64,000 nt of DNA from Lachnospiraceae bacterium (GCA_023664345.1 JAMPFQ010000001.1:114482-178481), one strand, 5' to 3'. Shown: positions 1 to 30,606, counted from the first letter of the stretch. Program-made: numbers and translations. The notes: generated by a model from the sequence alone, not told the origin.

Positions 1-987
1 TAGCAATTTCATTCATTAAATCCCTGTTCAGGTTCACTTTGTCCCTCTTACTATATGCCTCAATCAATAATAACGGATTAACACCATATTTAATGGAACA
101 TTTTTGTATTTCTTTTAAATAACTTGTATGGAAACCTGAAACACCACATATCGTATCAATGGGGTTGATTCCTGATTTTTTAATAAAAGGGTAAATATGC
201 TTTTTGCTGTCAAGCAACAGCGAAATAATATCTAATGGCACATCGTATCCCAGGCGACTCAAACAAATAAGAAAATGTTCCAAGCATGCATTACCTGAAC
301 TACGCCCCATTCCCTGAAGGGAACAATCTATAAAATTAATTCCCAGTTCCGCTGCAAATAGACTGTTCGACAAAGCAAGACCTATGTTGTCATGTCCATG
401 AAACCCTACTTCAAGTTTATCGCTACAACTTCGAATTGCTTCATAATATCTTGCAATGTCATCAGGAACCATATTACCTGCCGAATCCACTATATATATC
501 AAGTCTGCTCCCCATGCTTCAGAACGCTTCACCGCTTCAGAAAATTCTTCAGGTGTCGCGGCATAAGATTTCATATAATTAGCCATTACATGCATATGAT
601 ATTTTTTAGCATGTTTAATATACTCTTCAGACTGATTTATGCTTTCTACGTTTGTTCCAATTCGTATAAAAGAACATCCATATTCAGCCATCATCTCAAC
701 ATCATCAAGCGAAGCTATCCCTGGAATACAAAACATTCCATATTTTGCAACACTCAAATTATCTTGCGCACATCTCAAATATTCTTTATCCGTATGCAAT
801 GCAAGACCGTTTTTTAAATTACTTGCGCCCACACCCATCCCATGTCCAATTTCAATATATCGAATTCCCTGCTTTTCCAAGCTTGCGCAAATATTTTTCT
901 CATCGTTTGTAGAAAACTGAAAATTAATTGCATAGCTTCCATCTCTCAATGTTACATCCATAATCTCAAAATTTTTGTTTTTCATAA
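1..987 (-). CDS. DmpG-like 4-hydroxy-2-oxovalerate aldolase / HMGL-like DRE-TIM metallolyase, C-terminally truncated by the window edge
   Basis: Reverse-complement translation from 987 gives MKNKNFEIMDVTLRDGSYAINFQFS..., which matches the DVTLRDG(S/M)HA N-terminal signature of DmpG/HMG-CoA-lyase-like aldolases. An RBS-like GGAGTA lies upstream. The plus-strand ORFs at 392-1048 are low-complexity antisense artefacts. Confidence 0.5.
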
Positions 988-993
988 TTACTC

Positions 994-1764
994 CTATTCA
1001 ACCATCGTCAAAATTCGTGGATATTCCTTTAACAGTTCACTGATATAGTCCACATATTCTTTCGTGGAAAATGTCAAAATATTTCCTTTTCCCAGATATG
1101 CGCTTTTTACTATTCCTTGTTCTTTGCACAACGCATCTATTCTACTTGGATTATAAGAATCTTCCGGCTTGTCATAATCATAAACAAAGTGTACTGCGTA
1201 ATCATGGATCTGTTTTCCATCTATAATCTTAATGCCATTAAATGCTTTGTTATAACGATATGTAACATGATTTATCTTTTCTACATAGTGTATTAACGTG
1301 GAACCCGCGTCAAAATTAACACACAAAACTTTCCCATCCTTTTTTACAAAGCGTTCCCAAAAAGAATCCTTTCCAAATGCTTCATGTACATTACAATCTC
1401 TATAATAAGGCATTTCTTGACCCACACCACAAATAGAAAAATTAGGGTCAAGACTTCTATTATAAGCATAATTATGAATCATATATTCCGAAAGCATGCC
1501 ACATGTCGATCCTGTTTCTACTGGATCATATATTTCCCCGTGACAAAAAGAATAAGAAAAAGTGGGCGTTACTATGGTCCCGTCATCACCAATTACCGTT
1601 TTAACTGCACCAATAAACTCTTCACACAATTGTTCCTTCGTTTTACAATTCTGCAGTATCCCCAAAAATCCTAGATTACTATGAATGAAAACGCTATCTC
1701 CTTGTTTAATACCTACTTTTTGTAATGCTTCAATAATATTTTCACGCGTATAGTGAGCTATCAT
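994..1764 (-). CDS. AAC(3)-family (aminoglycoside 3-N-acetyltransferase-like, PF02522-type) acyltransferase
   Basis: The motifs GDSVFIHSNLGFLG ... GDDGTIVTPTFSYS match the AAC(3) consensus (GD.l.vHSSL..lG ... GTLvMPT.S). The gene overlaps the upstream ACP gene by 4 nt. Confidence 0.6.
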   Translation of the reverse strand: MIAHYTRENIIEALQKVGIKQGDSVFIHSNLGFLGILQNCKTKEQLCEEFIGAVKTVIGDDGTIVTPTFSYSFCHGEIYDPVETGSTCGMLSEYMIHNYAYNRSLDPNFSICGVGQEMPYYRDCNVHEAFGKDSFWERFVKKDGKVLCVNFDAGSTLIHYVEKINHVTYRYNKAFNGIKIIDGKQIHDYAVHFVYDYDKPEDSYNPSRIDALCKEQGIVKSAYLGKGNILTFSTKEYVDYISELLKEYPRILTMVE

Positions 1765-2009
1765 ATTTTTCTCCCTTTTTCAATGCATTCTGCTAATCCA
1801 TCAATCGTCGAGAAAGCCCTGTCCTCAAACTGCTCGTTATCAAAGGTCATATCAAAAGTTTCTTCTATTTCACTAATAAACATAATAAACGCAAATGAAT
1901 CTATATACTCCTTGTCAAAATAATTTGCTGCGCTATTCTTACTTATTTCCTCTTCGCTTACCCCACTATTACTTGCCATCCAATCAATAATCCATTTCCT
2001 TGCTTCCAT
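1761..2009 (-). CDS. acyl carrier protein-like (82 aa)
   Basis: It is small and acidic, with a DSF(A) phosphopantetheine-site-like motif in a helical context (DKEYIDSFAFIMFISEIEETF). It is translationally coupled to its neighbours. Confidence 0.5.
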   Translation of the reverse strand: MEARKWIIDWMASNSGVSEEEISKNSAANYFDKEYIDSFAFIMFISEIEETFDMTFDNEQFEDRAFSTIDGLAECIEKGRKI

Positions 2010-2668
2010 CAGTATTCCTCCATTTCTACTGCAATCACTCTTGATGGTGCTCCATCACAGTTTTTAATTTTCAAAGGTAAAGCAAAAAGACAATATTTTT
2101 TCCCTTCTACCAAACAATCTGTATTAGACAAGTACTCTATAATTGTTACCTGATTCTCCAATAGTTTCTTATGAACTGGCGAATCTTCTTTTTGTGTAAT
2201 GGCACCACCGCCATCCGGAGATGGCGTATCCAACGCTATAACCCCCATTCCTTTTTCTATTAAATATGATACCGCATCTTCTGAAAAGAAAGGAAAACCT
2301 TTATAATAATTGGGCGTCTTCCAATTTTTCCACCAGTCAAAACGAAAAAGCATTCTTTCCGATATCACAAGATCCCTTACATCCTTATACTCAACAATAC
2401 TTCCCTCTCCCATATATGAAAAATTGACAATGGATATGTTTCCACATATCTTTTGCAAATCCGCCTCGTCTATTCCTTGTGCACCATTAAAAAAATGCAA
2501 TGGTGCATCCATATGGGTTCCCGAATGACTTCCCACCAATATACTATGTGTATTCCTGCCTACTTCATCAAGTTTTCCCATTTGTGTTATCCGCACTTTT
2601 TGATGCCATGGCGTACCACATGTCATGCATTCATTATCCAATGTTAAAGACAAATCAATAATTTTCAA
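2009..2668 (-). CDS. cyclase-family protein (kynurenine formamidase/arylformamidase-like hydrolase)
   Basis: The SHSGTHMDAPLHF motif is the HxGTHxDxPxH signature of the putative cyclase (PF04199) family. Confidence 0.6.
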   Translation of the reverse strand: MKIIDLSLTLDNECMTCGTPWHQKVRITQMGKLDEVGRNTHSILVGSHSGTHMDAPLHFFNGAQGIDEADLQKICGNISIVNFSYMGEGSIVEYKDVRDLVISERMLFRFDWWKNWKTPNYYKGFPFFSEDAVSYLIEKGMGVIALDTPSPDGGGAITQKEDSPVHKKLLENQVTIIEYLSNTDCLVEGKKYCLFALPLKIKNCDGAPSRVIAVEMEEY

Positions 2669-2672
2669 TGTT

Positions 2673-3287
2673 TTACCCCCTTTTTATACTGATTATCTCA
2701 ACTATTTCACCAAATGGTCCTGTACAAAAACCAATATCCATTCTCTTTTGATTTACTGTCAGTTCTTCAACACTCGTAACATTATACCCTGCCGCTTGAA
2801 TCCTTTGCAATTCTTTTTTCGTATCACTGGACAAAAAACAGATAGAAGACCACCCTGTTTTATCCAACTTCCACTCTACAGCATTAACCTTTCTAATTGC
2901 ACAAGACACCCGCCCCAGTGCAAATTTACCCTCAAGAAATAACTCATCCCCACATGATTCCATTTTTTTTAAGCCTAAGGAAGCCAAAAATTCTGAAGTC
3001 TTTCCTGGATCTGGAGAATACATGATAACAGTGCTATTTTCTACATCCATGCTGTCTTCTCCTTGGAAACATGTATCATACGCCGTAATTTCGACCGGAA
3101 CATCCTGCACTTTTTCATACAGATAAATATCATGTCCCTGTTGTGGTTCTCTAAAAAATATTTTTTTGCAATCTATGTTCCTCAAATTAAAATTCTGAAA
3201 TTGCAATTCATATCCAGAAATACTGGAAACTGATCGCACTGATTTTCTCTCGCAGGAAAAAGAGATATGGTCAAATTTCATAATCAT
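2673..3287 (-). CDS. hypothetical protein (204 aa)
   Basis: The ORF is packed between the ligase and the cyclase with a 17-nt overlap. I see no recognisable motif. Confidence 0.3.
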   Translation of the reverse strand: MIMKFDHISFSCERKSVRSVSSISGYELQFQNFNLRNIDCKKIFFREPQQGHDIYLYEKVQDVPVEITAYDTCFQGEDSMDVENSTVIMYSPDPGKTSEFLASLGLKKMESCGDELFLEGKFALGRVSCAIRKVNAVEWKLDKTGWSSICFLSSDTKKELQRIQAAGYNVTSVEELTVNQKRMDIGFCTGPFGEIVEIISIKRG

Positions 3288-4677
3288 GCTCTATCATCTC
3301 CCGTATTTTTTGCTTATCCAATTTTCCGTTTAAATTTTTGGGCAATTCATCAAACTCTATTAAATAGTCCAGCTTATAGTGTTTGCCCAATTCTTTTTCT
3401 AATAATTCATTCAGTAAATGTATATCCTGCTTCTTACTGCCCGCATAACAACAGATAATCTGCTCCTCACCATTCAACACACAAGAAAGAACTACATTTT
3501 CATTAATACCATTAATTTTTTGCAAACATTCCATTATATCAGATGGATTAATATTAAAACCGCCACGAATGATCAAATCCTTTTTCCGTCCATTTATAAA
3601 CAAACAATCATCCTGTATATAACCCAAATCGCCCGTTCTATAATAATCTCCTAAGAATTCCTCATATGCATCATTATTTACATATCCCCTAAACATCCAT
3701 GGTACAGCCACTTGTATTTCATTGTCATCATCCAATTTCAATTTAACTCCTGGCAACAATTGCCCTACCGAATCACTGCGGGTATCTTCTCCCAGTTTTT
3801 CAGATGTCAAAAATAAGGTTTCTGATAATCCATAACTTTGATAAACACGAATATTATATTTGTTTTCTATTTTGTCACGCAAATCTTTATATAATGGAGC
3901 TGTTCCCACACTGACTGTCGCATTTATATTTTGAAGATAATCTTTATAGACTCCTTTTGCATCTATGATGTCTATAATTTTTAACATAGTCGGCGACAGC
4001 CAAAATGTATTAACTTTATGCCTTGTTACAGTCTTCCAAAACGTAAATGCTGATTTCATATTAAATCTGGGAAAGACAACCACTTTCCCCCCCATAACAA
4101 ACGGAAGGAAAATACTGTTCAAAATACCCGCCATATATGTCATTGGCATCACATGTGCCAAAATAGTATGTGCTCCATATCCCATATGCTCACCAAAAGA
4201 TACAGCGGAAAGGAAAAGATTTCCTGCGGAATGTCTTACTCCTTTAGGTTTCCCAGTGCTTCCCGAAGTGTAAGTTATAAGAAAAAGGCTATCATAATCC
4301 ACATCTTCAAAACTCTTTTTCATCTCCAATCCATTCCAAATTGATACTTGTTCAAAATAGTCTCTTTCCATATACATCGCACAAGAGTGAATATCTCTTA
4401 TGATCTTAATTTCTTCTTTACTCTTTTCAGGATCTACAGGAATAATTACTATTTGATATAATAAAGCAGCAAAATACATCATTAATAGTTCCACACTATT
4501 CTCCATGCATACAATCAGTTCCAAAATACCTCTATCACGCAAATTTTTGCCAATGTAATTAGCCTTTTGATAAATATCCGCATAAGAATATTCTGTTCCT
4601 GTTATTGCATCTATCACAAAAAGTTGATCTTCCTCAAAATTCTCTATTTTTTTTAAAATATCTTGTATTTCTTTCAT
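3271..4677 (-). CDS. AMP-dependent synthetase/ligase (acyl-AMP/acyl-ACP ligase-like adenylating enzyme)
   Basis: It has the AMP-binding P-loop YTSGSTGKPKGV and the GYGxTE-like SYGLSET motif. Its length (468 aa) fits the family. Confidence 0.7.
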   Translation of the reverse strand: MKEIQDILKKIENFEEDQLFVIDAITGTEYSYADIYQKANYIGKNLRDRGILELIVCMENSVELLMMYFAALLYQIVIIPVDPEKSKEEIKIIRDIHSCAMYMERDYFEQVSIWNGLEMKKSFEDVDYDSLFLITYTSGSTGKPKGVRHSAGNLFLSAVSFGEHMGYGAHTILAHVMPMTYMAGILNSIFLPFVMGGKVVVFPRFNMKSAFTFWKTVTRHKVNTFWLSPTMLKIIDIIDAKGVYKDYLQNINATVSVGTAPLYKDLRDKIENKYNIRVYQSYGLSETLFLTSEKLGEDTRSDSVGQLLPGVKLKLDDDNEIQVAVPWMFRGYVNNDAYEEFLGDYYRTGDLGYIQDDCLFINGRKKDLIIRGGFNINPSDIMECLQKINGINENVVLSCVLNGEEQIICCYAGSKKQDIHLLNELLEKELGKHYKLDYLIEFDELPKNLNGKLDKQKIREMIEHDYEI

Positions 4678-5946
4678 CTATATAACCTCTATCAAATCAT
4701 TATTCATTAGCTTTTCTACTATAGGTATCAGTTTCTGTATTGGCACTCCAATAATATTACTAATATCGATCAAATCATTTTTACCATCTGCATAAGCTAT
4801 AAAGTCTGTTATGTCTTTTACTGACATAGCCGACATTTTTGAACTGATTGTGGGAAACAATCCTCTTTTCCCAAGCTGAGGTTCACAGAGACAAATTATT
4901 CTGTATCTTTCATTTTTTTCTAATGCATCTATACATTGACGATATACTTCAAAAGAACCTTCAAGCCCTTCTTCGGAAATTATTGTCAGATCATCTTTTG
5001 ATGTATGATATTCGGGGTATTCATGATACTTTGTTCTGCATATGGAGCAAACTGGCAGATCAATGCCTGGTGCGCAGTATTGTCTTTCATCGCTGCCCCT
5101 GCACAAATACGTATAACTTTTATAATCGGGATAATGATATTTTAAAATATTTTGAGCAACTTTGTCAGCCAGCGTGTTTCCATATCTTGATGCAACATAA
5201 GAATACGTTCTGTCATCACCAACGCATGTTACATTGAACCCGGCAATTACTTTCTCTTGCATTTCCTCATAGTTTTTGCTTAAATAAGTAATCGAACCTA
5301 TTGTTTCTGGAATAAACACTATCCTATAGCTGTATTTTCGATGTTCTAAAGAGCAAATATATTGATACAGTTTTGTCACTACACACGGTCCAGAAAGTTC
5401 ATTATTTGCCATGGAGGGATGGCAAATATATGTTGACAAAAAAATCTCTTCTTGACACTCACCTGGAATTAGTATCTCTCCATAAGTTAGGCTTCCATCT
5501 ATTAGCTGACTGTCAATAACTATATGATAAGTACCTTCCTTTAAAGAATCCCTCTGCTTTTTCGACATACAAAATCCAAACCGTTCTTTATAGTAGGAAG
5601 TTACATACGGAACCGCCGTCTCATCATTTTCATCCACATAAATATACTGTTTCAATTCTTCTAAATTTACATAAGCATCTACGGGTGTTGAATACCCCAT
5701 AATATGTAAATTTAACCAATTAAAATCAAGGATTACCCCCTCTCCACAATATTCTATATAACCGCCCTTAATTACCCATTCTTTCGGAACGGTCCAATCA
5801 AAAACTTTTGTACCTGTAGGCACCTCATGCACTTTCAGATCCGGAATATATTCTTTTAATATACCTAAGGTTTCTCTCACACCTGCTCCAGTGATACTTC
5901 TACAGATAGGAAATAATCGTTTTGCTAATTCATACATATCTACCAT
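4678..5946 (-). CDS. DUF4910/aminopeptidase-like domain protein (tentative)
   Basis: The N-terminal LAKRLFPICRSITGAGVRETL is reminiscent of DUF4910/M28-like proteins seen in glycan loci. The assignment is tentative. Confidence 0.3.
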   Translation of the reverse strand: MVDMYELAKRLFPICRSITGAGVRETLGILKEYIPDLKVHEVPTGTKVFDWTVPKEWVIKGGYIEYCGEGVILDFNWLNLHIMGYSTPVDAYVNLEELKQYIYVDENDETAVPYVTSYYKERFGFCMSKKQRDSLKEGTYHIVIDSQLIDGSLTYGEILIPGECQEEIFLSTYICHPSMANNELSGPCVVTKLYQYICSLEHRKYSYRIVFIPETIGSITYLSKNYEEMQEKVIAGFNVTCVGDDRTYSYVASRYGNTLADKVAQNILKYHYPDYKSYTYLCRGSDERQYCAPGIDLPVCSICRTKYHEYPEYHTSKDDLTIISEEGLEGSFEVYRQCIDALEKNERYRIICLCEPQLGKRGLFPTISSKMSAMSVKDITDFIAYADGKNDLIDISNIIGVPIQKLIPIVEKLMNNDLIEVI

Positions 5947-6186
5947 TTTTTTCTCCTCGCGTTATATAGTAGTAATGTTTATAGACCCTCTCCAAAGTCT
6001 TAATACTATATCTTCATAACCATTCTTTGCCGTGTTCTCCACATAATATCTTCTTCACCTCCAGGCACTGAACTAATACTTCTTTTGCTGTCAGGCTTTT
6101 TATTATCCTCGCAATCCCCTTCATACCAATCCGTACAGAAATAGCTTAAGCCCTGGACGGATGAAAACAAATAACTCAATACTTTA

Positions 6187-7095
6187 TTATTCATTCCCCA
6201 ATCGGTCTCCAACACGAATAATGCCTTCATAAATATATTCTATGACTTCAATAACAGTATCCTTTGTCTTCACATAAAATCCGTCTTTTGTCTTTCCCAA
6301 TATCTGTCCTGGGGTATTGATATATCTATGTGCTCCTTTTACTTCCCTCACTTTATTTATTTTTATCATTTTACCATTAAGCATCGATGTTGCCATGGGT
6401 CCAGGTTTACATATTGCCCGAACAAAATTAAACAGTTCTCTACTTGTAGAATTCCAATTGATTATTTCGTCCCCGGACTTTCGCATGCCACAATATATAC
6501 CAACAGGATCGATCGTTTCCTGCTTGATCGCATTAGCTTTACCAATTTGGATCAACTTTACTGCTTCATACAGCACATCTGCACAACCAATATACGCGCG
6601 TTTTAATAAAGTGCCATAATCGTCATCATCCGTAATCGAATAGTTCCTTTGCAGAATGATATCACCAGTATCTATTCCTTCATCTACATAATGTACTGTA
6701 ATCCCAAAATCTTTTTCATCATTGATCAATACCCAATTCAGTATATTTCTTCCGCGGTAAAATGGTAATTTCCCTGCATGACAATTAATAGTTTTCCATT
6801 TCGGAAGATTAATGATTTCTGCCTTAAAAATTTGATTAAAAGACATAGATACAAATAAATCAACATTATATCTTTTGAGCACATTAATAAAATCAGGTGC
6901 ATTAACATTAGGGCTAAACAATACATCTATATTATACTTTCTGCCAAATTCTTGCAGAACTGAGTCTTTCTTATCATACCTAACACATATAAATGCAATG
7001 TGGATAGTCTCATCCTGTATCATCTTTTCGAAAGCATAATGGGACCATGGGCCATCTGCAAAATATCCTATTGTAATTGTACTTAACCTATGCAC
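6187..7095 (-). CDS. formyltransferase-family protein (Fmt/ArnA-N-like; sugar N-formyl/acyl transferase candidate)
   Basis: NCHAGKLPFYRGRNILNWVLINDEKDFGITVHYVDEGIDTGDII matches the formyl_trans_N catalytic region (HxSLLPxxRG ... D.G.DTG). Confidence 0.7.
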   Translation of the reverse strand: MHRLSTITIGYFADGPWSHYAFEKMIQDETIHIAFICVRYDKKDSVLQEFGRKYNIDVLFSPNVNAPDFINVLKRYNVDLFVSMSFNQIFKAEIINLPKWKTINCHAGKLPFYRGRNILNWVLINDEKDFGITVHYVDEGIDTGDIILQRNYSITDDDDYGTLLKRAYIGCADVLYEAVKLIQIGKANAIKQETIDPVGIYCGMRKSGDEIINWNSTSRELFNFVRAICKPGPMATSMLNGKMIKINKVREVKGAHRYINTPGQILGKTKDGFYVKTKDTVIEVIEYIYEGIIRVGDRLGNE

Positions 7096-7136: not shown

Positions 7137-7790
7137 TTATACCCCCCCCCCAATAGTTTCTTTCATTTCGTTTTCTTCCTTTCTATTTGTTGTGCTTGAC
7201 CGAAGTACCATACCCGCCGGAATCACATGGTAATCCGGAATTGTCATTTCCTGAATGACAGTGGCATTGGCACCCACCAGACATTCCTTTCCAACATTTA
7301 CTCCGCCACAGATACAAGCCGACACAGCTATATGTGTAAAATCACCAATATTGCAGTCATGCTCAATAAGACTACATGAATTTATAATACAATGCTTTCC
7401 TATATGAGCATCTGCATTCACAACAGCATTTTTCCCTATAAATGTTCCCTCACCGATTACTGCTGATTTTGCCATTGTAACGGTTGGATCTATAATCGTT
7501 GGAAACAGAAAGCCCACTTTCTGCAACTTTTCTACCAATCGTTTGCGCACATCATCTGTTCCCAGGAATCCAACCCCCAGAATCGCATAGTGAATTCCCT
7601 GGTCAAATAATTTTTGTATGTCATCATCTGTTCCTATCGCCCTAATCTTTTCATATGAAAAACTCGAATTTTCCATGCGATCCACAAAACCTGCAACCTC
7701 ATATTCTTCCGGAAGCGCCAAAAGTGTATCACATACAGATTTTGCGTGACCGCCACACCCCAGTATGATAATCCTATTTATATTTTTCAT
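7137..7790 (-). CDS. NeuD/PglD-family sugar N/O-acyltransferase (LegH/PseH-like)
   Basis: The N-terminal IIILGCGGHAKSV Rossmann-like segment is followed by left-handed beta-helix hexapeptide repeats. The gene overlaps the cytidylyltransferase gene by 4 nt. Confidence 0.7.
   Translation of the reverse strand: MKNINRIIILGCGGHAKSVCDTLLALPEEYEVAGFVDRMENSSFSYEKIRAIGTDDDIQKLFDQGIHYAILGVGFLGTDDVRKRLVEKLQKVGFLFPTIIDPTVTMAKSAVIGEGTFIGKNAVVNADAHIGKHCIINSCSLIEHDCNIGDFTHIAVSACICGGVNVGKECLVGANATVIQEMTIPDYHVIPAGMVLRSSTTNRKEENEMKETIGGGV
7142..7151. repeat. C10/G10 homopolymeric tract at the 3' end of the acyltransferase gene
   Basis: Ten consecutive C on the plus strand, which is G10 on the coding strand and encodes the GGG near the C-terminus (ETIGGGV*). 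Confidence 0.9.
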
Positions 7791-8491
7791 TTGATTCCCT
7801 CATTTCCCATCAGCTGCATCAAATACTGCGCAAAATCAAAATCCAATAATGTATCTATGTCAACTGAGTCCTGCGCTGACATAATATAGGCTACGGTATC
7901 ATTAGAATAATATGTTCTTTTTTCTTTCAGTAATTTATAATCCAAAATATATATAGCGCCATTGGGCACATAAAAAACGGTATTTGTCTGGCGATTATGT
8001 ATCGCATCACCCTCACCAAATCCTGCATTTTGTACACGACCATTATCAAGTTTCTTATGATACCATGTAACAGGCGTTTCCGCTTCTTTCATTGAAATAA
8101 GTGTCTCCGCGCCGGATCTCTCAAACAATTCCATTGCTTCATTAATATGGATTTCTGTCCTTAGGGGCGCTGTCGGCAGCAAAACCATAAACTTATCTAT
8201 TCTTTTATCGCTTTCCTGCATCAAATAATCTACGGCATGTAAATATACATCCACCGCTTGAGAAGTATCTGTCGCAAGTTCATCCGGCCTCAAAAAGGGA
8301 ACTTCTGCGCCATATTCTTTTGCCACTTCCGCAATCTTATGATCATCTGTGCTCACAATGATTTTTTCTACCTGTCGCGCCTTTTGGGCTGCCTCGATCG
8401 TATATGCGATCAACGGTTTCCCATTCAACTCTCTTATATTTTTCCCGGGCAAACCTTTTGATCCGCCTCTGGCCGGAATGATTGCTATCAT
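7787..8491 (-). CDS. CMP-nonulosonic acid synthetase (acylneuraminate cytidylyltransferase family; LegF/PseF/NeuA-like)
   Basis: MIAIIPARGGSKGLPGKNI is the classic CMP-NeuAc synthetase N-terminus. Confidence 0.75.
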   Translation of the reverse strand: MIAIIPARGGSKGLPGKNIRELNGKPLIAYTIEAAQKARQVEKIIVSTDDHKIAEVAKEYGAEVPFLRPDELATDTSQAVDVYLHAVDYLMQESDKRIDKFMVLLPTAPLRTEIHINEAMELFERSGAETLISMKEAETPVTWYHKKLDNGRVQNAGFGEGDAIHNRQTNTVFYVPNGAIYILDYKLLKEKRTYYSNDTVAYIMSAQDSVDIDTLLDFDFAQYLMQLMGNEGIK

Positions 8492-8505: not shown

Positions 8506-9549
8506 TTAAAAATCCTCGTACCGAATCAATTCGTCATAACAGATATCCCGCTTAGCTTCTTTTCCAATCAAAAAACTGTAATATTTAGGCGGAATCCCGG
8601 TTCCTGGGCGCTTGTAATCCAAATCTTCTTCCTGGATAATCTGCCCTTTAGATATTGGTTTAGCCGCCACAATACTTCTTTGAAATGCCTCTCGCCTTTC
8701 TTGACTTTCACTGACCACTTTAGAATAAGACCCCAGCATTTTATACCCACATTCCGCAGCCTGACAAATCACACGCAGTTCTTCCGGATTAGCTGAAATC
8801 TTATGATCCCAGCCAACCATATTCTTATCCAGCGTGAAATGTTTTTCAATAATGCAGACTCCTTTCGCCATGGACATTATTGGAGCGATCGTACCCAATG
8901 TATGATCCGAGTATCCAACAGGGCAGTTGAAATTATTTCTGAGCATATCAATATGGTTTAAATTTGTTTCCTCATCCTTTGGAGGATATATGGATACACA
9001 ATGTAACAAGATAATATCCTGGCATCCGTTTTCTTTGACACATTTAACCGCATCACTGACATCCGCCAAATCGCAAAGCCCCGTACTGATTACCATTGGC
9101 TTTTTCTTGCCAGCAAGATATTTCAAAAACGGAATATTATTCAAATCCATGGACGCAACCTTGATAAACGGAACATCCAACTCATCTACTAATAAATCCG
9201 CTTCTCTTTTAGAAAATGGTGTGGAATTAAAATCAATACCAACTGTATCGCAATACTCTTTCAGTAATCTATGTTCTTTTGCTCCAATATGATATTCGTC
9301 TACAATTTCCTCTAAAGTGTAATCTGTTCTGTGACGATAATCATCAGTCAAAAAATAATTGTCTTCGTATACTTTTCTTGAAAAGATAGTATCCTTAGAC
9401 CAAGACTGAAATTTCACACAATCAGCCCCACACTCTTTTGCCTTATCAATCATTTTCTTTGCCAAATCCATATTGCCATTATGGTTTGAACCAATCTCCG
9501 CAATAACATATGGTTTACAAAAGTCTCTCATTTTCTCATAATCAAACAT
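8506..9549 (-). CDS. nonulosonic acid synthase (NeuB/LegI/PseI family)
   Basis: VIAEIGSNHNGNMDLAKKMIDKAKECGADCVKFQ is the NeuB signature. Its length (347 aa) is typical. Confidence 0.8.
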   Translation of the reverse strand: MFDYEKMRDFCKPYVIAEIGSNHNGNMDLAKKMIDKAKECGADCVKFQSWSKDTIFSRKVYEDNYFLTDDYRHRTDYTLEEIVDEYHIGAKEHRLLKEYCDTVGIDFNSTPFSKREADLLVDELDVPFIKVASMDLNNIPFLKYLAGKKKPMVISTGLCDLADVSDAVKCVKENGCQDIILLHCVSIYPPKDEETNLNHIDMLRNNFNCPVGYSDHTLGTIAPIMSMAKGVCIIEKHFTLDKNMVGWDHKISANPEELRVICQAAECGYKMLGSYSKVVSESQERREAFQRSIVAAKPISKGQIIQEEDLDYKRPGTGIPPKYYSFLIGKEAKRDICYDELIRYEDF

Positions 9550-10399: not shown

Positions 10400-11458
10400 T
10401 CAGAGTTTTCTCTCTATCGCCAGCTTTTTCTTCATCCTGTCTAATTCTTCCAACTGCCCCATATCCAGCCATGCATCTTCATTTACCGTATATACTCCCA
10501 CTCTTTCTCCTTCATCGATACACTTTTGTATCACATCTGTAATATGAATAAATGTATCACCTGGGATTTTTTCAAGGAACTCCGGTTCCAGTATATATAG
10601 TCCGGTATTTGTCAGGAAACTAAACTGAGGCTTTTCACTTAACGCCACTGCCCTCCCTTCTTGATCAACTTCCACTGTTCCATAAGGTATTTCAACCTTT
10701 TTCTCCGCGCAAACCATTGTTGCTATATTATGCTGCTCTTTGTGGTACTCCATCATCAATCTATAATCTTCTTCCACAAGTATATCACAATTAGTCATAA
10801 AAAAGGAGTCATTTATTTTACCCAACAGCAGTCTTAGTCCACCGCCTGTTCCCCAAAAAGTATCTTCATCTATAAAGCAAATATCTTTCTTTTCTTCCGT
10901 TTCCTGAAAAAAAGTCCGAATCAAATTCTTTTTATAATTGATGATCATATAAAACCGTTCACAGCCTACCTGCTCAAAACGCTCCATGATGTGCTCAGTA
11001 ATCGTCTTTTCGCCAATTGGAATCAGGGGTTTCGGCAAAATATTTGTATACGGATATAGACGGCTTCCTTTCCCCCCAGCCATAATCGCTACAGGAATCG
11101 ATTTATCCAAAACATTAAATACCCTGAACCCATTATCAAAATCTATTCGAACAATCCTGCCTTTCCTGTCTATAACAGGAACCGATGTTATTTGCTTCTC
11201 TCGCATAAATTTCAAACTATCTATATGCGCATCCATTGCGATCGTATAGGGATGATGATTTGCAATCTTATCTATCGTACAGCCCATATCTCCATGACGT
11301 AATATATACCTTCTCACATCACCATCACTGACCACACCCTTGAGCTGCTCATTCTCACACAGAAATATAATGCCATGTCCGTTTTGATCCAATTGCTGCA
11401 CAGCTTCTAAAATCGTTGCATTTCCTTTCACTAAAAATTGTGAAATACTCATTTTCAT
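10400..11458 (-). CDS. CBS-domain nucleotidyltransferase (PtmE-like GlcN/GlcNAc-1-P guanylyl/nucleotidyltransferase)
   Basis: The N-terminal CBS pair (VVSDGDVRRYI...) is followed by an NTP-transferase G-x-G-x-R loop (AGGKGSRL). The architecture matches the C. jejuni PtmE type used in legionaminic-acid synthesis. Confidence 0.6.
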   Translation of the reverse strand: MKMSISQFLVKGNATILEAVQQLDQNGHGIIFLCENEQLKGVVSDGDVRRYILRHGDMGCTIDKIANHHPYTIAMDAHIDSLKFMREKQITSVPVIDRKGRIVRIDFDNGFRVFNVLDKSIPVAIMAGGKGSRLYPYTNILPKPLIPIGEKTITEHIMERFEQVGCERFYMIINYKKNLIRTFFQETEEKKDICFIDEDTFWGTGGGLRLLLGKINDSFFMTNCDILVEEDYRLMMEYHKEQHNIATMVCAEKKVEIPYGTVEVDQEGRAVALSEKPQFSFLTNTGLYILEPEFLEKIPGDTFIHITDVIQKCIDEGERVGVYTVNEDAWLDMGQLEELDRMKKKLAIERKL

Positions 11459-11477: not shown

Positions 11478-12614
11478 TTATTTGGCAAATTGTCTTATCT
11501 TATCAACCACAAAATCTACATCTTCTGGCTGCAAATTGCTACTGCAAGGCAAATTAACAATACGCTCATAATAATATAACGCTTTTTCAATTTTATAAGC
11601 CTGATTTTCTTTATACATATCTGCTGTATGTATCAATTTCCAGACCGGTCTGCTTTGAATTTCGTGCTGTTTCAAATATTGTATCAACTCATCCCGCTTA
11701 GTGGTCATATATGAATAAAACCAATAATTAGAACGAATGTTATCAGAAAACGGCAATAATTCAATTCCATCCGTAATATATCTCCTATAGTTCTCCTTCT
11801 TCACCTCTATAAAATGCTCCAGCTGTTCCATCTGTGCCAATCCCAATGCCGCCTGTAAATTGGTCATTCGATAATTATATCCAACCTCTGAATGTTCAAA
11901 GTATAATTCATCTCTCTTGGCTTGTGTTGAAAGACTCCTGCATCTTTGCAGGTATTCCGGGACGTTTGCTACGATCATTCCCCCTCCGCCAGTCGTGATC
12001 ACCTTGTTCCCATTAAATGAATATACACCTACAGTACCAATTGTGCCAGCATATTTTCCAGCATATGATCCCGACAAGTAATAACTTCCCAACGCCTCTG
12101 TCGCATCTTCTACAACAGGAATCCTATATTGCTGAGAGAGCTCCATGATTTTTTCCATATTGGCCAGATTACCAAATACATGAACCACAACGATAGCCTT
12201 TATCTGTCGGTTTGTTTTTTTATTAACTACCTTTCCTTTGTTCGTGTCACATTCTTTTAGCAGGAAATCCTCCAGCTTATCAACATCCATCGTCAGACTG
12301 TCATCACAGTCCATAAAAACCGGTTCAGCACCCAGATATCTCACCGGATTGACCGCTGCAATAAAAGTCAAAGTAGGAACAAGCACTTCATCATTCCTGC
12401 CAACACCACATACCTGTAACGCTAAATGTAAGCCTGCTGTACCACTCTGACAAGCTACCGCGTTATCTACTCTCAAATAATTGCTGATCGCTTTCTCAAA
12501 ATCTGTTATATATGCACCTGCAGTGGAAACCCATTCTTCTGTAATTGCCTTTGTCACATATTTTAATTCATTCCCCTTCAAATTAGGAACAGATAATGGT
12601 ATCAATTTACTCAT
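11478..12614 (-). CDS. DegT/DnrJ/EryC1/StrS-family PLP aminotransferase (LegC/PseC-like)
   Basis: It shows the characteristic family pattern (LSVPNLKGNELKYV ... FSFNGNK ... GYNYRM). Confidence 0.8.
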   Translation of the reverse strand: MSKLIPLSVPNLKGNELKYVTKAITEEWVSTAGAYITDFEKAISNYLRVDNAVACQSGTAGLHLALQVCGVGRNDEVLVPTLTFIAAVNPVRYLGAEPVFMDCDDSLTMDVDKLEDFLLKECDTNKGKVVNKKTNRQIKAIVVVHVFGNLANMEKIMELSQQYRIPVVEDATEALGSYYLSGSYAGKYAGTIGTVGVYSFNGNKVITTGGGGMIVANVPEYLQRCRSLSTQAKRDELYFEHSEVGYNYRMTNLQAALGLAQMEQLEHFIEVKKENYRRYITDGIELLPFSDNIRSNYWFYSYMTTKRDELIQYLKQHEIQSRPVWKLIHTADMYKENQAYKIEKALYYYERIVNLPCSSNLQPEDVDFVVDKIRQFAK

Positions 12615-12651: not shown

Positions 12652-13632
12652 CTAAATATTGTACATATCTGTTTTATAAAATTCCATATTTTTCTTCAGC
12701 CATTCGATCGTTTCCGCAATGCCTTCAGCAAATGTATATTGCGGCGTCCAGTTTGTCAAATCTTTGATCTTTTTATTAGACCCCAGCAATCTATTTACTT
12801 CACTATTTACAGGACGCAGCCTTTGTTCTTCACAGACTATTTTGGCTTTTGGATTAATCTGCCGGATAATTTCATTTGCTAATTCTCCGATTGCGATTTC
12901 ATGCTGGGTAGCTATATTGATTTCTTCTCCAATCGTCTTTTCTGATCTTGAAATTTCAATAAACCCATTTGCTGTATCCTTTACAAAATTAAAGTCTCTG
13001 GTAGGCGTTAGTGAACCCAGCTTAATTTCCTCATTTCCGGACAGCAACTGCGTAATGATCGTCGGAATGACTGCTCTGGCGGATTGTCTGGGACCATACG
13101 TATTAAATGGCCGCACAATACTTATTGGCATACTGAAGCTTCTATAGAAACTCTCTGCCAGTCTGTCTGCGCCGATCTTGGTCGCGGAGTAGGGAGACTG
13201 CCCCTGATAAGGATGTGCTTCATCAATCGGCACATATTTTGCCGTCCCATAAACCTCTGAGGTAGAGGTGATCATGATCCGACTTGTTTCTAATTTTCTT
13301 GCAGCCTGCAGAACATTCAATGTCCCTTTAATATTAGTATCGACATAAGAATCCGGAGAATGATAACTAAACGGAATAGCAATCAATGCCGCCAAATGAA
13401 ATACCTGCTCCACTCCTCTCATAGCCTCATAGACTCCATTGGGATCCCTTATATCTCCGGTAAAAATTTCTATCTGGCTCAACTTATCCTTAGAAAAGGT
13501 ATCCAGCCAGCCCCAACGGTTAAAAGAATTATAATAAACAAAAGCTTTAACCTCATATCCCTGTTCAACCAGCATTTCCGTTAAATGACTTCCTATAAAG
13601 CCATCCGCACCTGTTACCAACACTTTTTTCAT
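12652..13632 (-). CDS. NAD-dependent nucleotide-sugar 4,6-dehydratase/epimerase (LegB/PseB-like SDR)
   Basis: VLVTGADGFIGSHL Rossmann motif, YxxxK in SPYSATKIGAD, 326 aa. Confidence 0.75.
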   Translation of the reverse strand: MKKVLVTGADGFIGSHLTEMLVEQGYEVKAFVYYNSFNRWGWLDTFSKDKLSQIEIFTGDIRDPNGVYEAMRGVEQVFHLAALIAIPFSYHSPDSYVDTNIKGTLNVLQAARKLETSRIMITSTSEVYGTAKYVPIDEAHPYQGQSPYSATKIGADRLAESFYRSFSMPISIVRPFNTYGPRQSARAVIPTIITQLLSGNEEIKLGSLTPTRDFNFVKDTANGFIEISRSEKTIGEEINIATQHEIAIGELANEIIRQINPKAKIVCEEQRLRPVNSEVNRLLGSNKKIKDLTNWTPQYTFAEGIAETIEWLKKNMEFYKTDMYNI

Positions 13633-15181: not shown

Positions 15182-16454
15182 TCTCCTGCCTTTCTGCTCT
15201 CAATCCAAACTTTCTACTCAAAAAATAAACAGCCGGAAAAAACAACAATACATACTCCCAACCCATATGCCAAAAATAGTAGATAGGAGATACCATACAC
15301 ATAAATATGATCACAGGCATTAAATAATAGCCCGCTTTCTTCTTATACGCACTTTTAGCTATACGACCAAAAAGTAATCCTGTTATAACAACCATAAATA
15401 ATGTTCCCACAATCCCCCAATCCATTATATAACCCGAGATAAAGGTAGAATATCTTTCCGCTGCTGGATTTAATGCAGTAATTTTAAGATACTCAGGAAA
15501 CGGAATCCCTATAGCACGTAAAATATAACCTTCCAAAAAAAAGAGCAGCGCTCCATAATATTTTGGCGTACTCCAAAATTCAGAGTATGTTTTTGTAAAT
15601 ACAGGAATACTATGCGTAAAATATAGGCTTGCCTTATATAAAGGGTTGACCATGCCATGTGTGGCAGAGTATATTTTTCCATACACCGGCCGAAGTGTTA
15701 CATCTCCCGGATAAAATAAATACTGTTCTGGCGCGGTATGCTCACCTCTGGTAGAGAACAGCGAAAGGGTAAAATATCCCAGGATACCTATAATAACAAT
15801 GCATATCAAAATCCTGCCCCACTGTTTCCTTTTCATTTTTATCTTTTCTTGTACGCTCTGGTAATGATTTAAAACAACTATTATCATGAACAGTCCCACA
15901 GAAGTGACCACTCTGCTTCGCCCTCCTACTCCCAAAATAGCTATTGCAGGCAAAAAAAGAGCTCCCACTGAAACCACTCTGGTAATTCGGTAATTCAGTC
16001 TTGGTACCCGGCTTAATATAAGATACGCCACTGTGCCTAAATACATAGCAACCTCCGCAATCTTATTTATAATAGAGCGATTTGCGCTCAATATATTCCG
16101 ATAATCAGCAACGGCAAACTGATATCCACCAGGCACAGGTAAATGTATGACCTCCCACATGTATATCACGAACGCAAACACGCTTACCGCCTCTACAAGC
16201 AATAACATTATTTCCGCGCTTTTCGAAATAGTTACTATATATCTTTCTTTTTTTTTCATTTTTCCTGTTCGCTCACCTATATAACAACTCATTATAAAAA
16301 AAACAAACACCACCAGCACATAAATCAACCCTTCGTAATCATATACTGTGTGCTTGTACGGACCCATGAAAAAAAGAAACCAATAAGCTATTTGTGCAAC
16401 TATCAGACACTTATAAGGACTGATTTTTTCCATTTTTACTTGCCAGCCTTTCAC
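15171..16454 (-). CDS. polytopic membrane protein, possible Wzy-type polymerase
   Basis: It has more than 10 predicted TM segments and sits in a glycan locus. There is no sharp motif. An A9 run at 16243-16252 lies near its 5' end. Confidence 0.3.
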   Translation of the reverse strand: MKGWQVKMEKISPYKCLIVAQIAYWFLFFMGPYKHTVYDYEGLIYVLVVFVFFIMSCYIGERTGKMKKKERYIVTISKSAEIMLLLVEAVSVFAFVIYMWEVIHLPVPGGYQFAVADYRNILSANRSIINKIAEVAMYLGTVAYLILSRVPRLNYRITRVVSVGALFLPAIAILGVGGRSRVVTSVGLFMIIVVLNHYQSVQEKIKMKRKQWGRILICIVIIGILGYFTLSLFSTRGEHTAPEQYLFYPGDVTLRPVYGKIYSATHGMVNPLYKASLYFTHSIPVFTKTYSEFWSTPKYYGALLFFLEGYILRAIGIPFPEYLKITALNPAAERYSTFISGYIMDWGIVGTLFMVVITGLLFGRIAKSAYKKKAGYYLMPVIIFMCMVSPIYYFWHMGWEYVLLFFPAVYFLSRKFGLRAERQENDE

Positions 16455-17751
16455 TCACATATACTCTCAAAGCATCAGACATTTTATCCATCTCACTATT
16501 GAACATATTATTATTATTATAAAATTTAGCCTGAAACATTCCCTGCAACAAATCGGACATAAATTTTTCATTCGAATAATCTACTACAGGATAATCAAAT
16601 ATAGATCTGTCAATTTTATCTATTTTATATATGTTCGGATGAAGATCGGAATAATAATTATCCGTAAAAGTGAACACCCTTTTCCCTCTGAATAATGCTT
16701 CCACTCCTACTGACCCTGTATATACCGCAACATTATCAATCCACTCTAACAATTCATTACTGTTGTCATATGGGTGAATCAAATGAACATTTTCATATTT
16801 CTTCAGCTCCCTGTAAAATTCCAGATCACGCCGCAAGAACATGGCCGGATGTTCTTTGATAACCAAAACGACCTCTTTGGAAGCCTCGCTGACAATCTTT
16901 AAAATGGATTCCTCATATAATGCGAATTCAACCCTATCACACCAATACTCTACTGTTGCCTCAGGGGCAAGGTGCAACGGCAGAAGAACAGTCTTACTAT
17001 TTTTTTCTATTTTATCCCTAACATCCTCCATATGTTCAAAGTAATGTTCTATATTTTTATCCATCACTTTTTTAAAATGCCAATTCTTTTCCAGCACTGT
17101 ACCATAATGATAGTTATCAGGATCTCTTGACACCACTTTCTTAATGTTAAAATAGTTCCTCTTGATTATTTCTCTGATATATATCTTAATCACATCATAA
17201 TATTTCTTCTGTTGATTTGCTTCAAATTTTGGCTTATATTCTATCCTCAATACCTCCTGCAATGTTGACTGTATTTCCTGTTGCGACACTACACGAGGAA
17301 ACTTATTCAGTTCGCCACGCACAGATATTCTTGTATATCCATTAAAAAAATGACCCACAAATGATACATATAGTATTTCATGCTGCTTAGCCACACGTTC
17401 CATCACATCCTGAACATAGCAGTCAATCAAGTTCCCCATGATAAAGTCAATGTGCTGTCCCCCAAAAAAAGTGTCCAACCCGTTTGCCAAACGATCAATC
17501 AGTCTATATGCCCTTTCTGTTTCCAGTTTTCTAAGGAACCGACACCTTATCCGTATACTTTCTCTTGTATTTCCATCAAAAAAGTGCTCACTTTTATCAT
17601 ACTTTGCAGAATACAGGAAATCTCCTGTCCACAGCATGTCTTTCCTGCGTTCGTCTGATAACCCGATTATTTCAGCTGTCGGAAATGCACCCTGTGCCAG
17701 TTCCAAACTGAAACCTTTATCGCATCTTCGTCTATGAACAAATATCCGCAT
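16411..17751 (-). CDS. capsule-polysaccharide-biosynthesis family protein (KpsC/KpsS-like, PF05159-type; candidate nonulosonic-acid/Kdo-type transferase)
   Basis: The VLVIKEHP...YTGSVGVEALFRGKRVFTF pattern fits the HP motif and C-terminal part of the Capsule_synth family. It has a GAGGG RBS and an ATG at 17751. Confidence 0.4.
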   Translation of the reverse strand: MRIFVHRRRCDKGFSLELAQGAFPTAEIIGLSDERRKDMLWTGDFLYSAKYDKSEHFFDGNTRESIRIRCRFLRKLETERAYRLIDRLANGLDTFFGGQHIDFIMGNLIDCYVQDVMERVAKQHEILYVSFVGHFFNGYTRISVRGELNKFPRVVSQQEIQSTLQEVLRIEYKPKFEANQQKKYYDVIKIYIREIIKRNYFNIKKVVSRDPDNYHYGTVLEKNWHFKKVMDKNIEHYFEHMEDVRDKIEKNSKTVLLPLHLAPEATVEYWCDRVEFALYEESILKIVSEASKEVVLVIKEHPAMFLRRDLEFYRELKKYENVHLIHPYDNSNELLEWIDNVAVYTGSVGVEALFRGKRVFTFTDNYYSDLHPNIYKIDKIDRSIFDYPVVDYSNEKFMSDLLQGMFQAKFYNNNNMFNSEMDKMSDALRVYVSERLASKNGKNQSL

Positions 17752-19130: not shown

Positions 19131-19270
19131 TTCTGGCCTCCGTTCTGATAATCATGTTTCAATGCAAAATACGCACCTATTCCTGCTATCGTTGGCCATA
19201 GTCCCAACAAAACGCTATCACCACTTCTGTCATTTCACACCTCACAATTTTAACATTTTTTCCTTACAGC

Positions 19271-20822: not shown

Positions 20823-20847
20823 ATCACCATTGTTTTAATCTACTTAT

Positions 20848-21185
20848 GTTTCTCCACAAGTTTTTCCATGGCAGATAACGACTCAAAATTCTCTGGAACT
20901 ATTTCCTCCGCTTCTAATACAATCTGAAATCCATCTTCTATGGCAGCAACTCTAATTCCATAAGGACAAAGCTGTCTATCATTCCATCCTTTCCAATCAA
21001 TCCTTCTTCAAATATCTCTTGGGCACCTTATATATAGTTCGTCCGCAACGTGCCTCTTTGCACAAATACTCCATCAAATCTGAACTGTCTCCAACAAGTT
21101 CCATTGTTATCTTATCTGTACTCAAATCCTGAATATAGCCTTTTCCTTTTAAGATACGATCAGCTTTATAGCATATTTTATCCAA
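20848..21185 (-). pseudogene. carrier protein (DltC/PCP-like) interrupted by a stop
   Basis: 20997-21185 encodes ...ELVGDSSDLMEYL (a GxDS phosphopantetheine-site-like motif) and then a stop. The downstream frame continues as ...VAAIEDGFQIVLEAEEIVPENFESLSAMEKLVEKH*. Confidence 0.4.
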
Positions 21186-22906: not shown

Positions 22907-23039
22907 CTTCATATCCCGATATACCCTATCCTCAAATTTATCTTCTTCAACATACAGATTTATGAGCAATTACTTTTTGCATTATAGCACAGACTGAAAC
23001 ATTTGTATACTGCTGCATTATTTTTTCTTACAAAACCAT

Positions 23040-26611: not shown

Positions 26612-26619
26612 TCTTTCCT

Positions 26620-28133: not shown

Positions 28134-28163
28134 TATAGTTCCCTCACTATCATTATTCTGGAT

Positions 28164-28814: not shown

Positions 28815-28823
28815 AACTTCCTC

Positions 28824-30521: not shown

Positions 30522-30606
30522 ACTTTCACTACTTTCGTTTTACTTTTTGTCCAAATCACCCGATCTGCCATAACTAAATGCTCTCTTTTTACTTGCATAA
30601 ACACTT

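Follow-up and report, generated by a model that had tools for sequence, protein, structure and literature searches.

Results

A seven-gene cassette follows legionaminic-acid-type genes

We analyzed a 64,000-nt stretch of DNA (hereafter the window) from a Lachnospiraceae bacterium (GCA_023664345.1 JAMPFQ010000001.1:114482-178481), using gene calls and Pfam and NCBIfam scans of the window proteins, and found at its start (positions 1-5946) a self-contained cassette of seven genes, encoding a DUF4910-family protein, an adenylate-forming ligase, a predicted VOC/glyoxalase-fold protein, a cyclase-family hydrolase, a stand-alone acyl carrier protein (ACP), an AAC(3)-fold N-acyltransferase and a DmpG-like aldolase. 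The cassette lies downstream of a nonulosonic acid (NulO) pathway of the legionaminic acid (Leg) type, and we propose from the sequences, with somewhat more confidence than doubt, that it carries out an ACP-dependent exchange of an N-acyl group on the Leg-type sugar made by the upstream genes. What was observed directly is which genes are present, that their catalytic motifs are intact, that the cassette is conserved and linked to NulO genes, and that natural gene fusions occur.

Every gene in the first 16 kb is on the minus strand, and the genes are all real and intact save for that of the aldolase, which is cut at the window start (Table 1). Going downstream, the DUF4910 and ligase genes abut, the ligase gene overlaps the VOC gene by 17 nt, 4 nt separate the VOC and cyclase genes, the cyclase and ACP genes overlap by 1 nt and the ACP and AAC(3)-like genes by 4 nt, and the aldolase gene follows after 8 nt; given these spacings (0, -17, +4, -1, -4 and +8 nt), the seven genes are therefore considered translationally coupled. 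On the upstream side, a gene for an ArnA/Fmt-like sugar N-formyltransferase (Fmt) stands 240 nt from the DUF4910 gene, with no obvious terminator between them, and 41 nt from the NeuD/PglD-type acetyltransferase gene. An earlier note on this DNA had placed the module directly behind NulO genes in the same orientation, and the NeuB, CMP-NulO synthetase and NeuD/PglD-type acetyltransferase genes are indeed there, all on the minus strand. The domain calls of that note were all correct in the Pfam and NCBIfam scans, and the 4- and 17-nt overlaps that it reported exist. Its count of six tightly packed genes has to be amended: its own text listed seven, there are eight, the VOC gene had been overlooked, and Fmt is not packed against the rest.

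The upstream pathway was classified as Leg type because its LegB- and LegC-type enzymes exceed the NCBIfam cut-offs. The NeuB-family synthase scored below the cut-offs of both NeuB_NnaB (345.7 vs 399.65) and PseI (299.7 vs 340.25), and the CMP-NulO synthetase below that of PseF (171.6 vs 205.7); for these two proteins, a Leg or pseudaminic acid (Pse) type is not assignable from the NCBIfam models alone.

The cassette recurs across phyla and is linked to NulO genes

Scanning one genome per species gave 36 further loci, which were then searched by tblastn with the window proteins, and counts are reported out of 37. Homologs of the HMGL-family aldolase, the ligase, the cyclase, the ACP, the AAC(3)-like protein and the DUF4910 protein co-occurred in 28/37 loci, and most of the other loci were cut by contig ends. 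The VOC-like gene is kept in the cassette too, from Firmicutes to Proteobacteria and Archaea. Carriers included Lachnospiraceae, Oscillospiraceae, the isolate Anaerosporobacter mobilis, Saprospiraceae, Planctomycetales, Bacteroidales, SAR86, Oceanospirillum, Roseobacter, Methanobacterium ferruginis and Micrarchaeota. The presence of one gene set in 28 independent loci of many phyla exceeds what chance association would give.

At the level of single loci, the AAC(3)-like protein had a 100% identical database entry (P0001) from a Lachnospiraceae metagenome-assembled genome (MAG), and a homolog with 53% identity was found in a locus with the identical order (DUF4910, ligase, a 206-aa protein, cyclase, ACP, AAC(3)-like and HMGL). 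This second locus directly follows genes for a CMP-synthetase, NeuB, a hexapeptide acetyltransferase and a polysialyltransferase-like protein, ends with a 352-aa aldolase and has no formyltransferase. Two loci (L017 and L019) contain minimal versions, made up of DUF4910, ligase, ACP and AAC(3)-like genes inside NulO clusters, which points to a four-gene exchange core and an optional acid-supply set (aldolase, VOC and cyclase) that usually accompanies it.

The earlier note had tied its module to NulO biosynthesis, and an operon-level synteny search bore this out: a NeuB and/or CMP-synthetase homolog was present within 10 kb in 22/37 loci, so that the module is not unlinked from NulO genes. NulO genes are interspersed with the cassette in Roseobacter sp. 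SK209-2-6 and in three further proteobacterial MAGs, where the order is HMGL, ligase, VOC, cyclase, ACP, AAC(3)-like, dehydratase, aminotransferase, CMP-synthetase, further genes, NeuB and DUF4910. The closest relatives of the window cassette (L004-L006, 71-75% identity) have no NeuB within 10 kb; in L004 a GT52/polysialyltransferase-like gene abuts the DUF4910 gene. In cassette-bearing loci, the window included, a NeuD-, hexapeptide- or GNAT-type acetyltransferase gene is kept beside the NulO genes, and if these are the usual N7 (LegH/PseH-type) enzymes, their retention fits an exchange at the other nitrogen.

These neighborhoods also bear on the possibility that the cassette tailors another amino sugar of the same polysaccharide, of the bacillosamine/QuiN4N type. 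The window does encode a PglF-like dehydratase, a second DegT aminotransferase, PglD- and PglC-like enzymes, a PIG-L deacetylase and a second formyltransferase, which would suit such a sugar, and the 15 loci that lack both NulO markers within 10 kb are consistent with it. We nevertheless consider it improbable, since the neighbors that recur across phyla are NeuB and CMP-synthetase genes and not bacillosamine genes, the proteobacterial cassette is embedded between NulO genes, the gene adjoining DUF4910 in L004 is sialyltransferase-like, and Cj1295, the Campylobacter jejuni relative of the DUF4910 protein, acts on Pse.

The formyltransferase, which the earlier note had counted as part of the module, proved to be a local neighbor of the conserved cassette. 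None of the 37 loci yielded an Fmt homolog that met the filters of the tblastn screen, and one distant locus alone (L035) encodes a shorter Formyl_trans_N protein (252 aa, by BLASTP and Pfam). Together with the 240-nt spacer, the synteny screen ruled out membership of Fmt in the cassette.

Natural fusions join the acyltransferase to ACP and DUF4910

An exhaustive HMMER search with a profile of the AAC(3)-like subfamily returned 696 cluster representatives at E <= 1e-30, and protein architectures were taken from the best 150. Among these best 150 of 696 there were 37 fusions of AAC(3)-like and DUF4910 domains (in the set P0132-P0279), two ACP-AAC(3) fusions, and one protein (P0252) in which the AAC(3)-like and DUF4910 domains are followed by a winged helix-turn-helix (wHTH) domain and a phosphopantetheinyl transferase; 12 more were long proteins with divergent C-termini, one of them with a DUF2172 match. 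Fusions were seen in assembled genomes as well (L031:9983-12067 and L021:9728-10753). The case that the AAC(3)-like enzyme draws its acyl group from an ACP and works with DUF4910 on one substrate is made most strongly by these fusions.

Transfer and loading proteins

The AAC(3)-like protein reached 65.1 bits with the NCBIfam model AAC_3, against a cut-off of 270, and was far below the cut-off of every subfamily model. Its HxxE motif (H159, E162), which we take from work on AAC(3)-VIa to be the catalytic dyad, is conserved and aligns with YokD and AAC(3) structures. Aminoglycoside resistance was ruled out by the AAC_3 cut-off and the gene context. The fold family and the HxxE motif are all that the protein has in common with resistance enzymes. 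In the ACP, the Asp37-Ser38 attachment motif is conserved in 38 orthologs; the protein is below the cut-offs of both DltC and AcpP, its best NCBIfam model being DltC (27.3 bits, cut-off 68).

The closest models and structures for the ligase were FACL, malonyl-CoA synthetase, MenE and luciferase, and no curated cut-off was reached. Its core motifs (TSGSTGKPKG, YGLSE and GDLG) and the A10 lysine, Lys452, are conserved. The segment PMTYMAG, presumably the A4 motif, has no conserved Asp. In amino-acid-activating enzymes the A4 Asp binds the alpha-amino group and so marks the activation of alpha-amino acids; the probable substrate of the ligase is thus a non-amino carboxylic acid.

These scores also bear on a different reading, in which the cassette is Dlt-like or has some other role outside NulO biosynthesis: ligase and ACP would serve to esterify a polymer or to produce a free small metabolite, and antibiotics would be the substrates of the AAC(3)-like enzyme. 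DltC is the best model for the ACP, even if at 27 bits, L004 has an MBOAT gene 400 nt downstream of its cassette, and in L024 the cassette stands alone. Such a system is nonetheless very improbable: neither the ACP nor the ligase comes near the Dlt cut-offs, the 37-locus screen showed no DltB or DltD kept with the cassette, the AAC(3)-like protein (65 bits vs 270) shows translational coupling to the ACP and, in other genomes, fusion to ACP or DUF4910, and linkage to NeuB is strong. The earlier note had named homology of the ligase/ACP pair to a lipid A or lipoteichoic acid pathway as a result that would count against it. Membership in a Dlt or lipid A system was rejected on the ACP score, the failure of the ligase to reach any Dlt or lipid A cut-off, and the context, and the proposal is unaffected on this point.

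The DUF4910 protein and its characterized relatives

The DUF4910 protein matched the Pfam families DUF4910 (357 bits), DUF2172 (94 bits) and HTH_47 (81 bits), that is, an M28-like domain into which DUF2172 is inserted, with a wHTH at the C-terminus. It aligned over its full length with CA_C2195 of Clostridium acetobutylicum (PDB 3k9t, E 1e-106), with the same three domains, and its H176, S178, P213 and H314 correspond to His189, Ser191, Pro225 and His324 of that protein. The sequence CHPSMANNE followed by L, C or V was found in 23/34 sequences (33 cassette orthologs and the window protein), so that in the window subclade Asn-Glu stands in place of Asp195, a zinc ligand of CA_C2195. Glu183 may, judging from the alignment, take its place as a zinc ligand.

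Das et al. (2014) determined the structure of CA_C2195 and described a mono-zinc site formed by His189, Asp195 and His324 (PMC4000134). An initial assignment of a di-zinc M28 site to the window protein was dropped after that paper and the alignment to 3k9t. The same authors reported a conserved neighborhood with NeuB (spsE), spsF, a glyoxalase, an aminosugar N-acetyltransferase and an ACP, with occasional fusions, and proposed, with no enzyme assay reported, a transacylation or deacylation of an amino sugar (PMC4000134). The statement in the earlier note that its author could not recall this combination thus overstated the novelty, as DUF4910, N-acetyltransferase, ACP, glyoxalase and NeuB had been described together in 2014. 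The CA_C2195 neighborhood differs in having Maf, an ATP-grasp enzyme and a NAT-HAD protein; an aldolase is not mentioned in the text of that paper, and its Table 2 has no adenylate-forming ligase or cyclase-family hydrolase (PMC4000134). Within the literature on such NulO loci we found no description of the set of aldolase, ligase, VOC, cyclase, ACP, AAC(3)-like and DUF4910 genes, and the SugarBase preprint and a 2026 Clostridium flagellin paper do not mention the seven-gene set.

A second precedent comes from C. jejuni, where Hitchen et al. (2010) found Cj1295, a 'polysaccharide biosynthesis protein with aminopeptidase-like domain', to be genetically required for Pse5(2,3-di-O-methylglyceroyl)7Ac on flagellin; removal of the N5-acetyl group was proposed for it, and the CMP-linked form of the variant sugar had been identified (PMC3068675). 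A 2026 paper still lists Cj1295 only as a putative transferase. The adjoining gene, Cj1296/7, is annotated as an aminoglycoside N3'-acetyltransferase (PMC3025981). It is phase-variable, a pseudogene in NCTC 11168 and intact in strain 12567. Both systems thus have a DUF4910-family gene beside an AAC(3)-like gene in a NulO locus, the likeness to Cj1295 resting on Pfam, the PIRSF family and 3k9t. The C. jejuni flagellin-glycosylation locus presumably also has ACP genes and an adenylating enzyme. In C. jejuni the target is flagellin-linked Pse, whereas the window has a Leg-type pathway in a Wzx/Wzy polysaccharide locus, and the acid-supply genes of the window (DmpG-like aldolase, VOC and cyclase) are unlike those of C. 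jejuni, which leads us to expect another acyl group. Of all parts of the cassette, DUF4910 has the best documentation, and it is no bystander; by analogy with these relatives, we propose it as a putative N-deacetylase or transamidase of the exchange.

The main rival to such an exchange uses an earlier acceptor: the AAC(3)-like enzyme would acylate the free amine of a nucleotide-hexose intermediate, either GDP-4-amino-4,6-dideoxy-GlcNAc (leading to N7) or GDP-GlcN before its N-acetylation (leading to N5), with no de-N-acetylation of a finished nonulosonate, and DUF4910 would have another role, for example in proofreading, transamidation or scaffolding. In line with this rival, a PtmE-like CBS-nucleotidyltransferase belongs to the pathway, and the Leg route of C. 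jejuni goes by way of GDP-GlcN, whose amine is free; CA_C2195-type proteins lack the canonical peptidase catalytic residues, and Cj1296/7 was dispensable for the C. jejuni N5 variant. We regard it as unlikely, however, because the frequent AAC(3)-DUF4910 fusions suggest that both activities act successively on the same substrate, a gene for an ordinary acetyltransferase (NeuD, hexapeptide or GNAT type) has been kept beside the cassette, and the C. jejuni acyl variant is at N5, with its CMP-linked form identified.

Acid-supply proteins

The window contains 328 of about 352 residues of the aldolase, which is the last cassette gene in Firmicute relatives. It exceeded the cut-off of NCBIfam PRK08195 (268 bits vs 229) and remained below that of the equivalog TIGR03217 (243.5 vs 286); alignment with DmpG (PDB 1nvm, E 7e-50) matched about 50% of DmpG over the full length. 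Arg17 and the metal ligands Asp18, His200 and His202 (HxH) of DmpG are kept, while the catalytic His21 is replaced by Tyr (RDGSY, window ~930-985) in all motif-scan matches, 24/32 cassette orthologs. Another motif, GFH(T/S)SY, was present in 14/32 orthologs, all from Firmicute-type loci, and its His is at what we take to be the position of DmpG Tyr291. This swapped His/Tyr pair looks like the mark of a distinct DmpG subfamily (L001-L039 orthologs). The DmpG/BphI 4-hydroxy-2-oxovalerate aldolases belong to aromatic catabolism and have a DmpF partner, whereas the window aldolase has a biosynthetic context and DmpF is absent beside it.

The cyclase-family protein scored 82 bits with the arylformamidase model TIGR03035, below the cut-off, and matched a kynurenine formamidase in the PDB at 3e-16. 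Residues 48-58 (HSGTHMDAPLH) form the kynurenine-formamidase metal motif; H48, D54, H58, H166 and E178 are at least 95% conserved in orthologs, and H52 is present in the window protein and less than 95% conserved.

For the 204-aa VOC protein, the Pfam match to Glyoxalase was weak (E 0.008, below the cut-off), a sequence search against the PDB gave no match, and a profile search reached E ~0.15, to GlxI and MCE. An AlphaFold2 model built from a shallow 11-sequence alignment had a mean pLDDT of 60.7, with residues 80-204 confident and residues 1-76 poor. Among the top 50 PDB matches listed by Foldseek for the confident C-terminal half, nearly all were glyoxalase I, bleomycin/mitomycin-resistance, FosX or other VOC-fold proteins (E from 5e-7, TM 0.6-0.7 on the target), and H7, E66, D142 and E197 are invariant across phyla. 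On this structural model the protein is a probable member of the VOC fold. An O2-dependent VOC reaction was set aside as implausible in strict anaerobes.

The archaeal, planctomycete and Saprospiraceae cassettes carry an additional S-adenosylmethionine (SAM) methyltransferase. It is inserted between the VOC and cyclase genes in Methanobacterium (L027:7190-9049), Planctomycetales (L023:8009-8716) and Saprospiraceae (L021:7368-8057), and the Methanobacterium cassette has a class I/II aminotransferase as well; these insertions hint that the acyl group may exist in methylated or aminated forms. A radical-SAM/SPASM protein (L016:5876-6907) is encoded immediately upstream of the cassette ligase in Anaerosporobacter mobilis.

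A proposed route for N-acyl exchange

From motifs, gene order, fusions and precedents, we infer every chemical step of the route, the order of the steps, the nitrogen position and the acyl group. The DmpG-like aldolase would join pyruvate and a small aldehyde into a 4-hydroxy-2-oxo acid, and the VOC-fold enzyme, the cyclase-family hydrolase or both would trim or isomerize the acid or its thioester; the acid to be transferred is probably such a pyruvate-aldehyde aldol product. The ANL ligase would then adenylate this non-alpha-amino acid and load it on the dedicated ACP, as its motifs, the gene order and the fusions suggest. By analogy with Cj1295, the mono-zinc M28-like DUF4910 protein would remove the N-acetyl group already on the nonulosonate, N5 being the most probable site, and the AAC(3)-fold enzyme would place the new acyl group, drawn from acyl-ACP, on the amine thus freed. 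The expected product is CMP-Leg with a non-acetyl N-acyl group, which would enter the Wzx/Wzy polysaccharide that the remainder of the low-GC locus encodes. Any particular acyl group would be an unlikely guess. Two candidates, 3-hydroxybutyryl and 3,4-dihydroxybutyryl, were discarded because they need a decarboxylation for which no obvious enzyme is present. In its core, the earlier proposal that ligase, ACP and AAC(3)-fold enzyme form an acyl-tailoring module for NulO agrees with the synteny in 22/37 loci, the fusions, the Cj1295-Cj1296/7 pair and the checks that could have contradicted it; what did not hold was the inclusion of Fmt, and the VOC protein has to be added.

Several points weigh against this exchange. 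Among the Pfam-scanned open reading frames (ORFs) of the window, several others being unscanned, no LegG/NeuC-type hydrolysing 2-epimerase (Epimerase_2) was found; as far as scanned, the Leg pathway in the window appears incomplete or non-canonical, and a LegG gene may lie outside it. Neither NeuB nor CMP-synthetase was present within 10 kb in 15/37 loci, and the oscillospiraceal locus L024 has the cassette alone, beside arginine-biosynthesis genes; with the contexts of L004-L006, linkage to NulO genes is therefore strong and not obligatory. In the CA_C2195 family, the M28 catalytic Asp and Glu are replaced by Ser191 and Pro225 (PMC4000134), which makes a hydrolytic deacetylase role uncertain, and in the window protein, as in most cassette orthologs, even the zinc ligand Asp195 has given way to Asn-Glu (Asn182-Glu183). 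Cj1296/7 was out of frame in NCTC 11168 when the di-O-methylglyceroyl Pse was made (PMC3068675, Table 1), and the AAC(3)-like partner is therefore unproven as necessary there; DUF4910 may be the transacylase itself. With Tyr in place of the catalytic His21, the aldolase reaction may differ from that of DmpG, and no reductase or decarboxylase is present that would turn a 4-hydroxy-2-oxo acid into a known NulO substituent (e.g., 3-hydroxybutyryl).

Two systems of related logic help to place the cassette. In one, the acceptor differs: the rfbK-O genes of Vibrio cholerae O1 make N-tetronyl (2,4-dihydroxybutyryl) perosamine with a dedicated ACP and an AMP-forming ligase in a polysaccharide locus, and the hydroxy-acyl group ends up amide-linked to an amino sugar, which is perosamine and not a nonulosonate. 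To our knowledge, rfbK-O has no DUF4910, AAC(3)-fold, DmpG-like, VOC or cyclase component. The N-deacetylase/N-sulfotransferase (NDST) of heparan sulfate is an analog in logic only, with deacetylating and re-derivatizing domains fused in one protein that acts on a sugar N-acetyl group; it shares no homology with the cassette, and both chemistry and acceptor differ.

In its widest form, the proposal combines a general two-enzyme NulO machine that deacetylates and then re-acylates, often as one polypeptide; the first ACP-dependent AAC(3)-fold acyltransferase; the first assigned activity of a mono-zinc DUF4910 protein; a DmpG-like aldolase with altered residues that feeds an undescribed C5-type N-acyl group (4-hydroxy-2-oxo- or 2,4-dihydroxy-pentanoyl-like) on Leg in gut Lachnospiraceae; and methylated or aminated variants in Planctomycetes, Saprospiraceae and methanogens. 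We regard this combination, with all its parts true together, as possible but doubtful.

The N-acyl groups of Pse and Leg are diverse (formyl, acetimidoyl, hydroxybutyryl, glyceroyl and aminoacyl) and shape antigenicity, recognition by phages and antibodies, and immune signaling. With the exception of acetimidoyl, the enzymes that install them are largely unidentified, which has been called 'a major challenge' (PMC5378307). The cassette is a defined, compact and widespread candidate system with a cultured carrier, Anaerosporobacter mobilis DSM 15930 (L016), and it offers testable roles for DUF4910 and for a non-resistance AAC(3) branch, both of them orphan families that abound in gut-microbiome genomes. 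An annotation as 'AAC(3) family N-acetyltransferase' in gut MAGs need not, then, mean aminoglycoside resistance.

Other features of the window

Table 1 Positions of the cassette genes, the upstream NulO genes and a transposase gene in the window.
Feature	Position	Strand	Match or remark
DmpG-like (HMGL-family) class II pyruvate aldolase	1-985, cut by window edge	-	Pfam HMGL-like 1e-38
AAC(3)-fold (Antibiotic_NAT) N-acyltransferase (putative acyl-ACP-dependent)	994-1764	-	Pfam 3e-26, 92.7 bits
Stand-alone ACP, 82 aa	1761-2009	-	PP-binding 3e-5
Cyclase-family (kynurenine-formamidase-like) metal-dependent amidohydrolase	2009-2668	-	Pfam Cyclase 7e-22
VOC/glyoxalase-fold protein (predicted), 204 aa	2673-3287	-	Weak Pfam Glyoxalase, Foldseek
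Adenylate-forming ligase, ANL superfamily (putative ACP loader)	3271-4677	-	AMP-binding 6e-48
DUF4910/DUF2172/HTH_47 protein (CA_C2195/Cj1295 family)	4678-5946	-	Pfam 3e-107, 357 bits
ArnA/Fmt-like sugar N-formyltransferase	6187-7095	-	Pfam Formyl_trans_N + Formyl_trans_C
NeuD/PglD-type acetyltransferase	7137-7790	-	NulO gene adjoining Fmt
CMP-NulO synthetase	7787-8491	-	
NeuB-family NulO synthase	8506-9549	-	Pfam 2e-81
GT2-like protein, 276 aa	9553-10383	-	Weak GT2 match; between PtmE-like gene and NeuB
CBS + nucleotidyltransferase (PtmE-like)	10400-11458	-	
LegC-type aminotransferase	11478-12614	-	TIGR04181 477.4 bits vs cut-off 420
LegB-type NAD-dependent 4,6-dehydratase	12652-13632	-	TIGR04180 518.8 bits vs cut-off 475
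PD-(D/E)XK transposase	32453-33460		

The window is a stack of surface-polysaccharide genes, with housekeeping genes (glmM, a ybbR-domain protein and leuA) at 55-62 kb. The GC content is 35-42% over 1-38 kb, which includes the Leg genes and the cassette, and about 50% over 38-64 kb, with a step at ~38000. The low GC content, the PD-(D/E)XK transposase and gene debris suggest that the Leg/cassette locus is a horizontally acquired, recombining locus of the serotype type. Among the Leg genes, the 276-aa protein with the weak GT2 match occupies the slot where a LegG-type step would be expected.

The debris extends over 17918-22969 on the minus strand and comprises fragments of a sodium:solute-symporter-like membrane protein (17918-19130), a frameshifted adenylation enzyme in pieces (20415-20822, 19679-20473 and 19358-19552) and a second, divergent AAC(3)-like fragment (21437-21892) that has an HSS...PTFS motif and is 33% identical to the cassette enzyme over 55 aa. 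The stretch has the look of a second acyl-transfer module that has decayed, or of errors in MAG assembly.

Between the transposase gene and that of the PglF-like dehydratase, three successive minus-strand ORFs (368, 576 and 338 aa; 33923-37785) had no Pfam match. A second N-acyl-swap logic, for a different amino sugar, is encoded at 25943-31938, with a PIG-L de-N-acetylase (25943-26611) and a second ArnA-like formyltransferase (26620-27519) that shares 27% identity with Fmt. The other proteins encoded there are a PglC-like phosphoglycosyltransferase and a PglD-like acetyltransferase, a DegT aminotransferase and an ATP-grasp-HAD fusion (28824-30521). Closer to the Leg genes, a 446-aa Capsule_synth-family protein (16411-17751) weakly matched the BFO_1060 family, candidate transferases of Leg/Pse derivatives in Tannerella forsythia, and this protein could, to judge from that match, be the transferase for the modified Leg.

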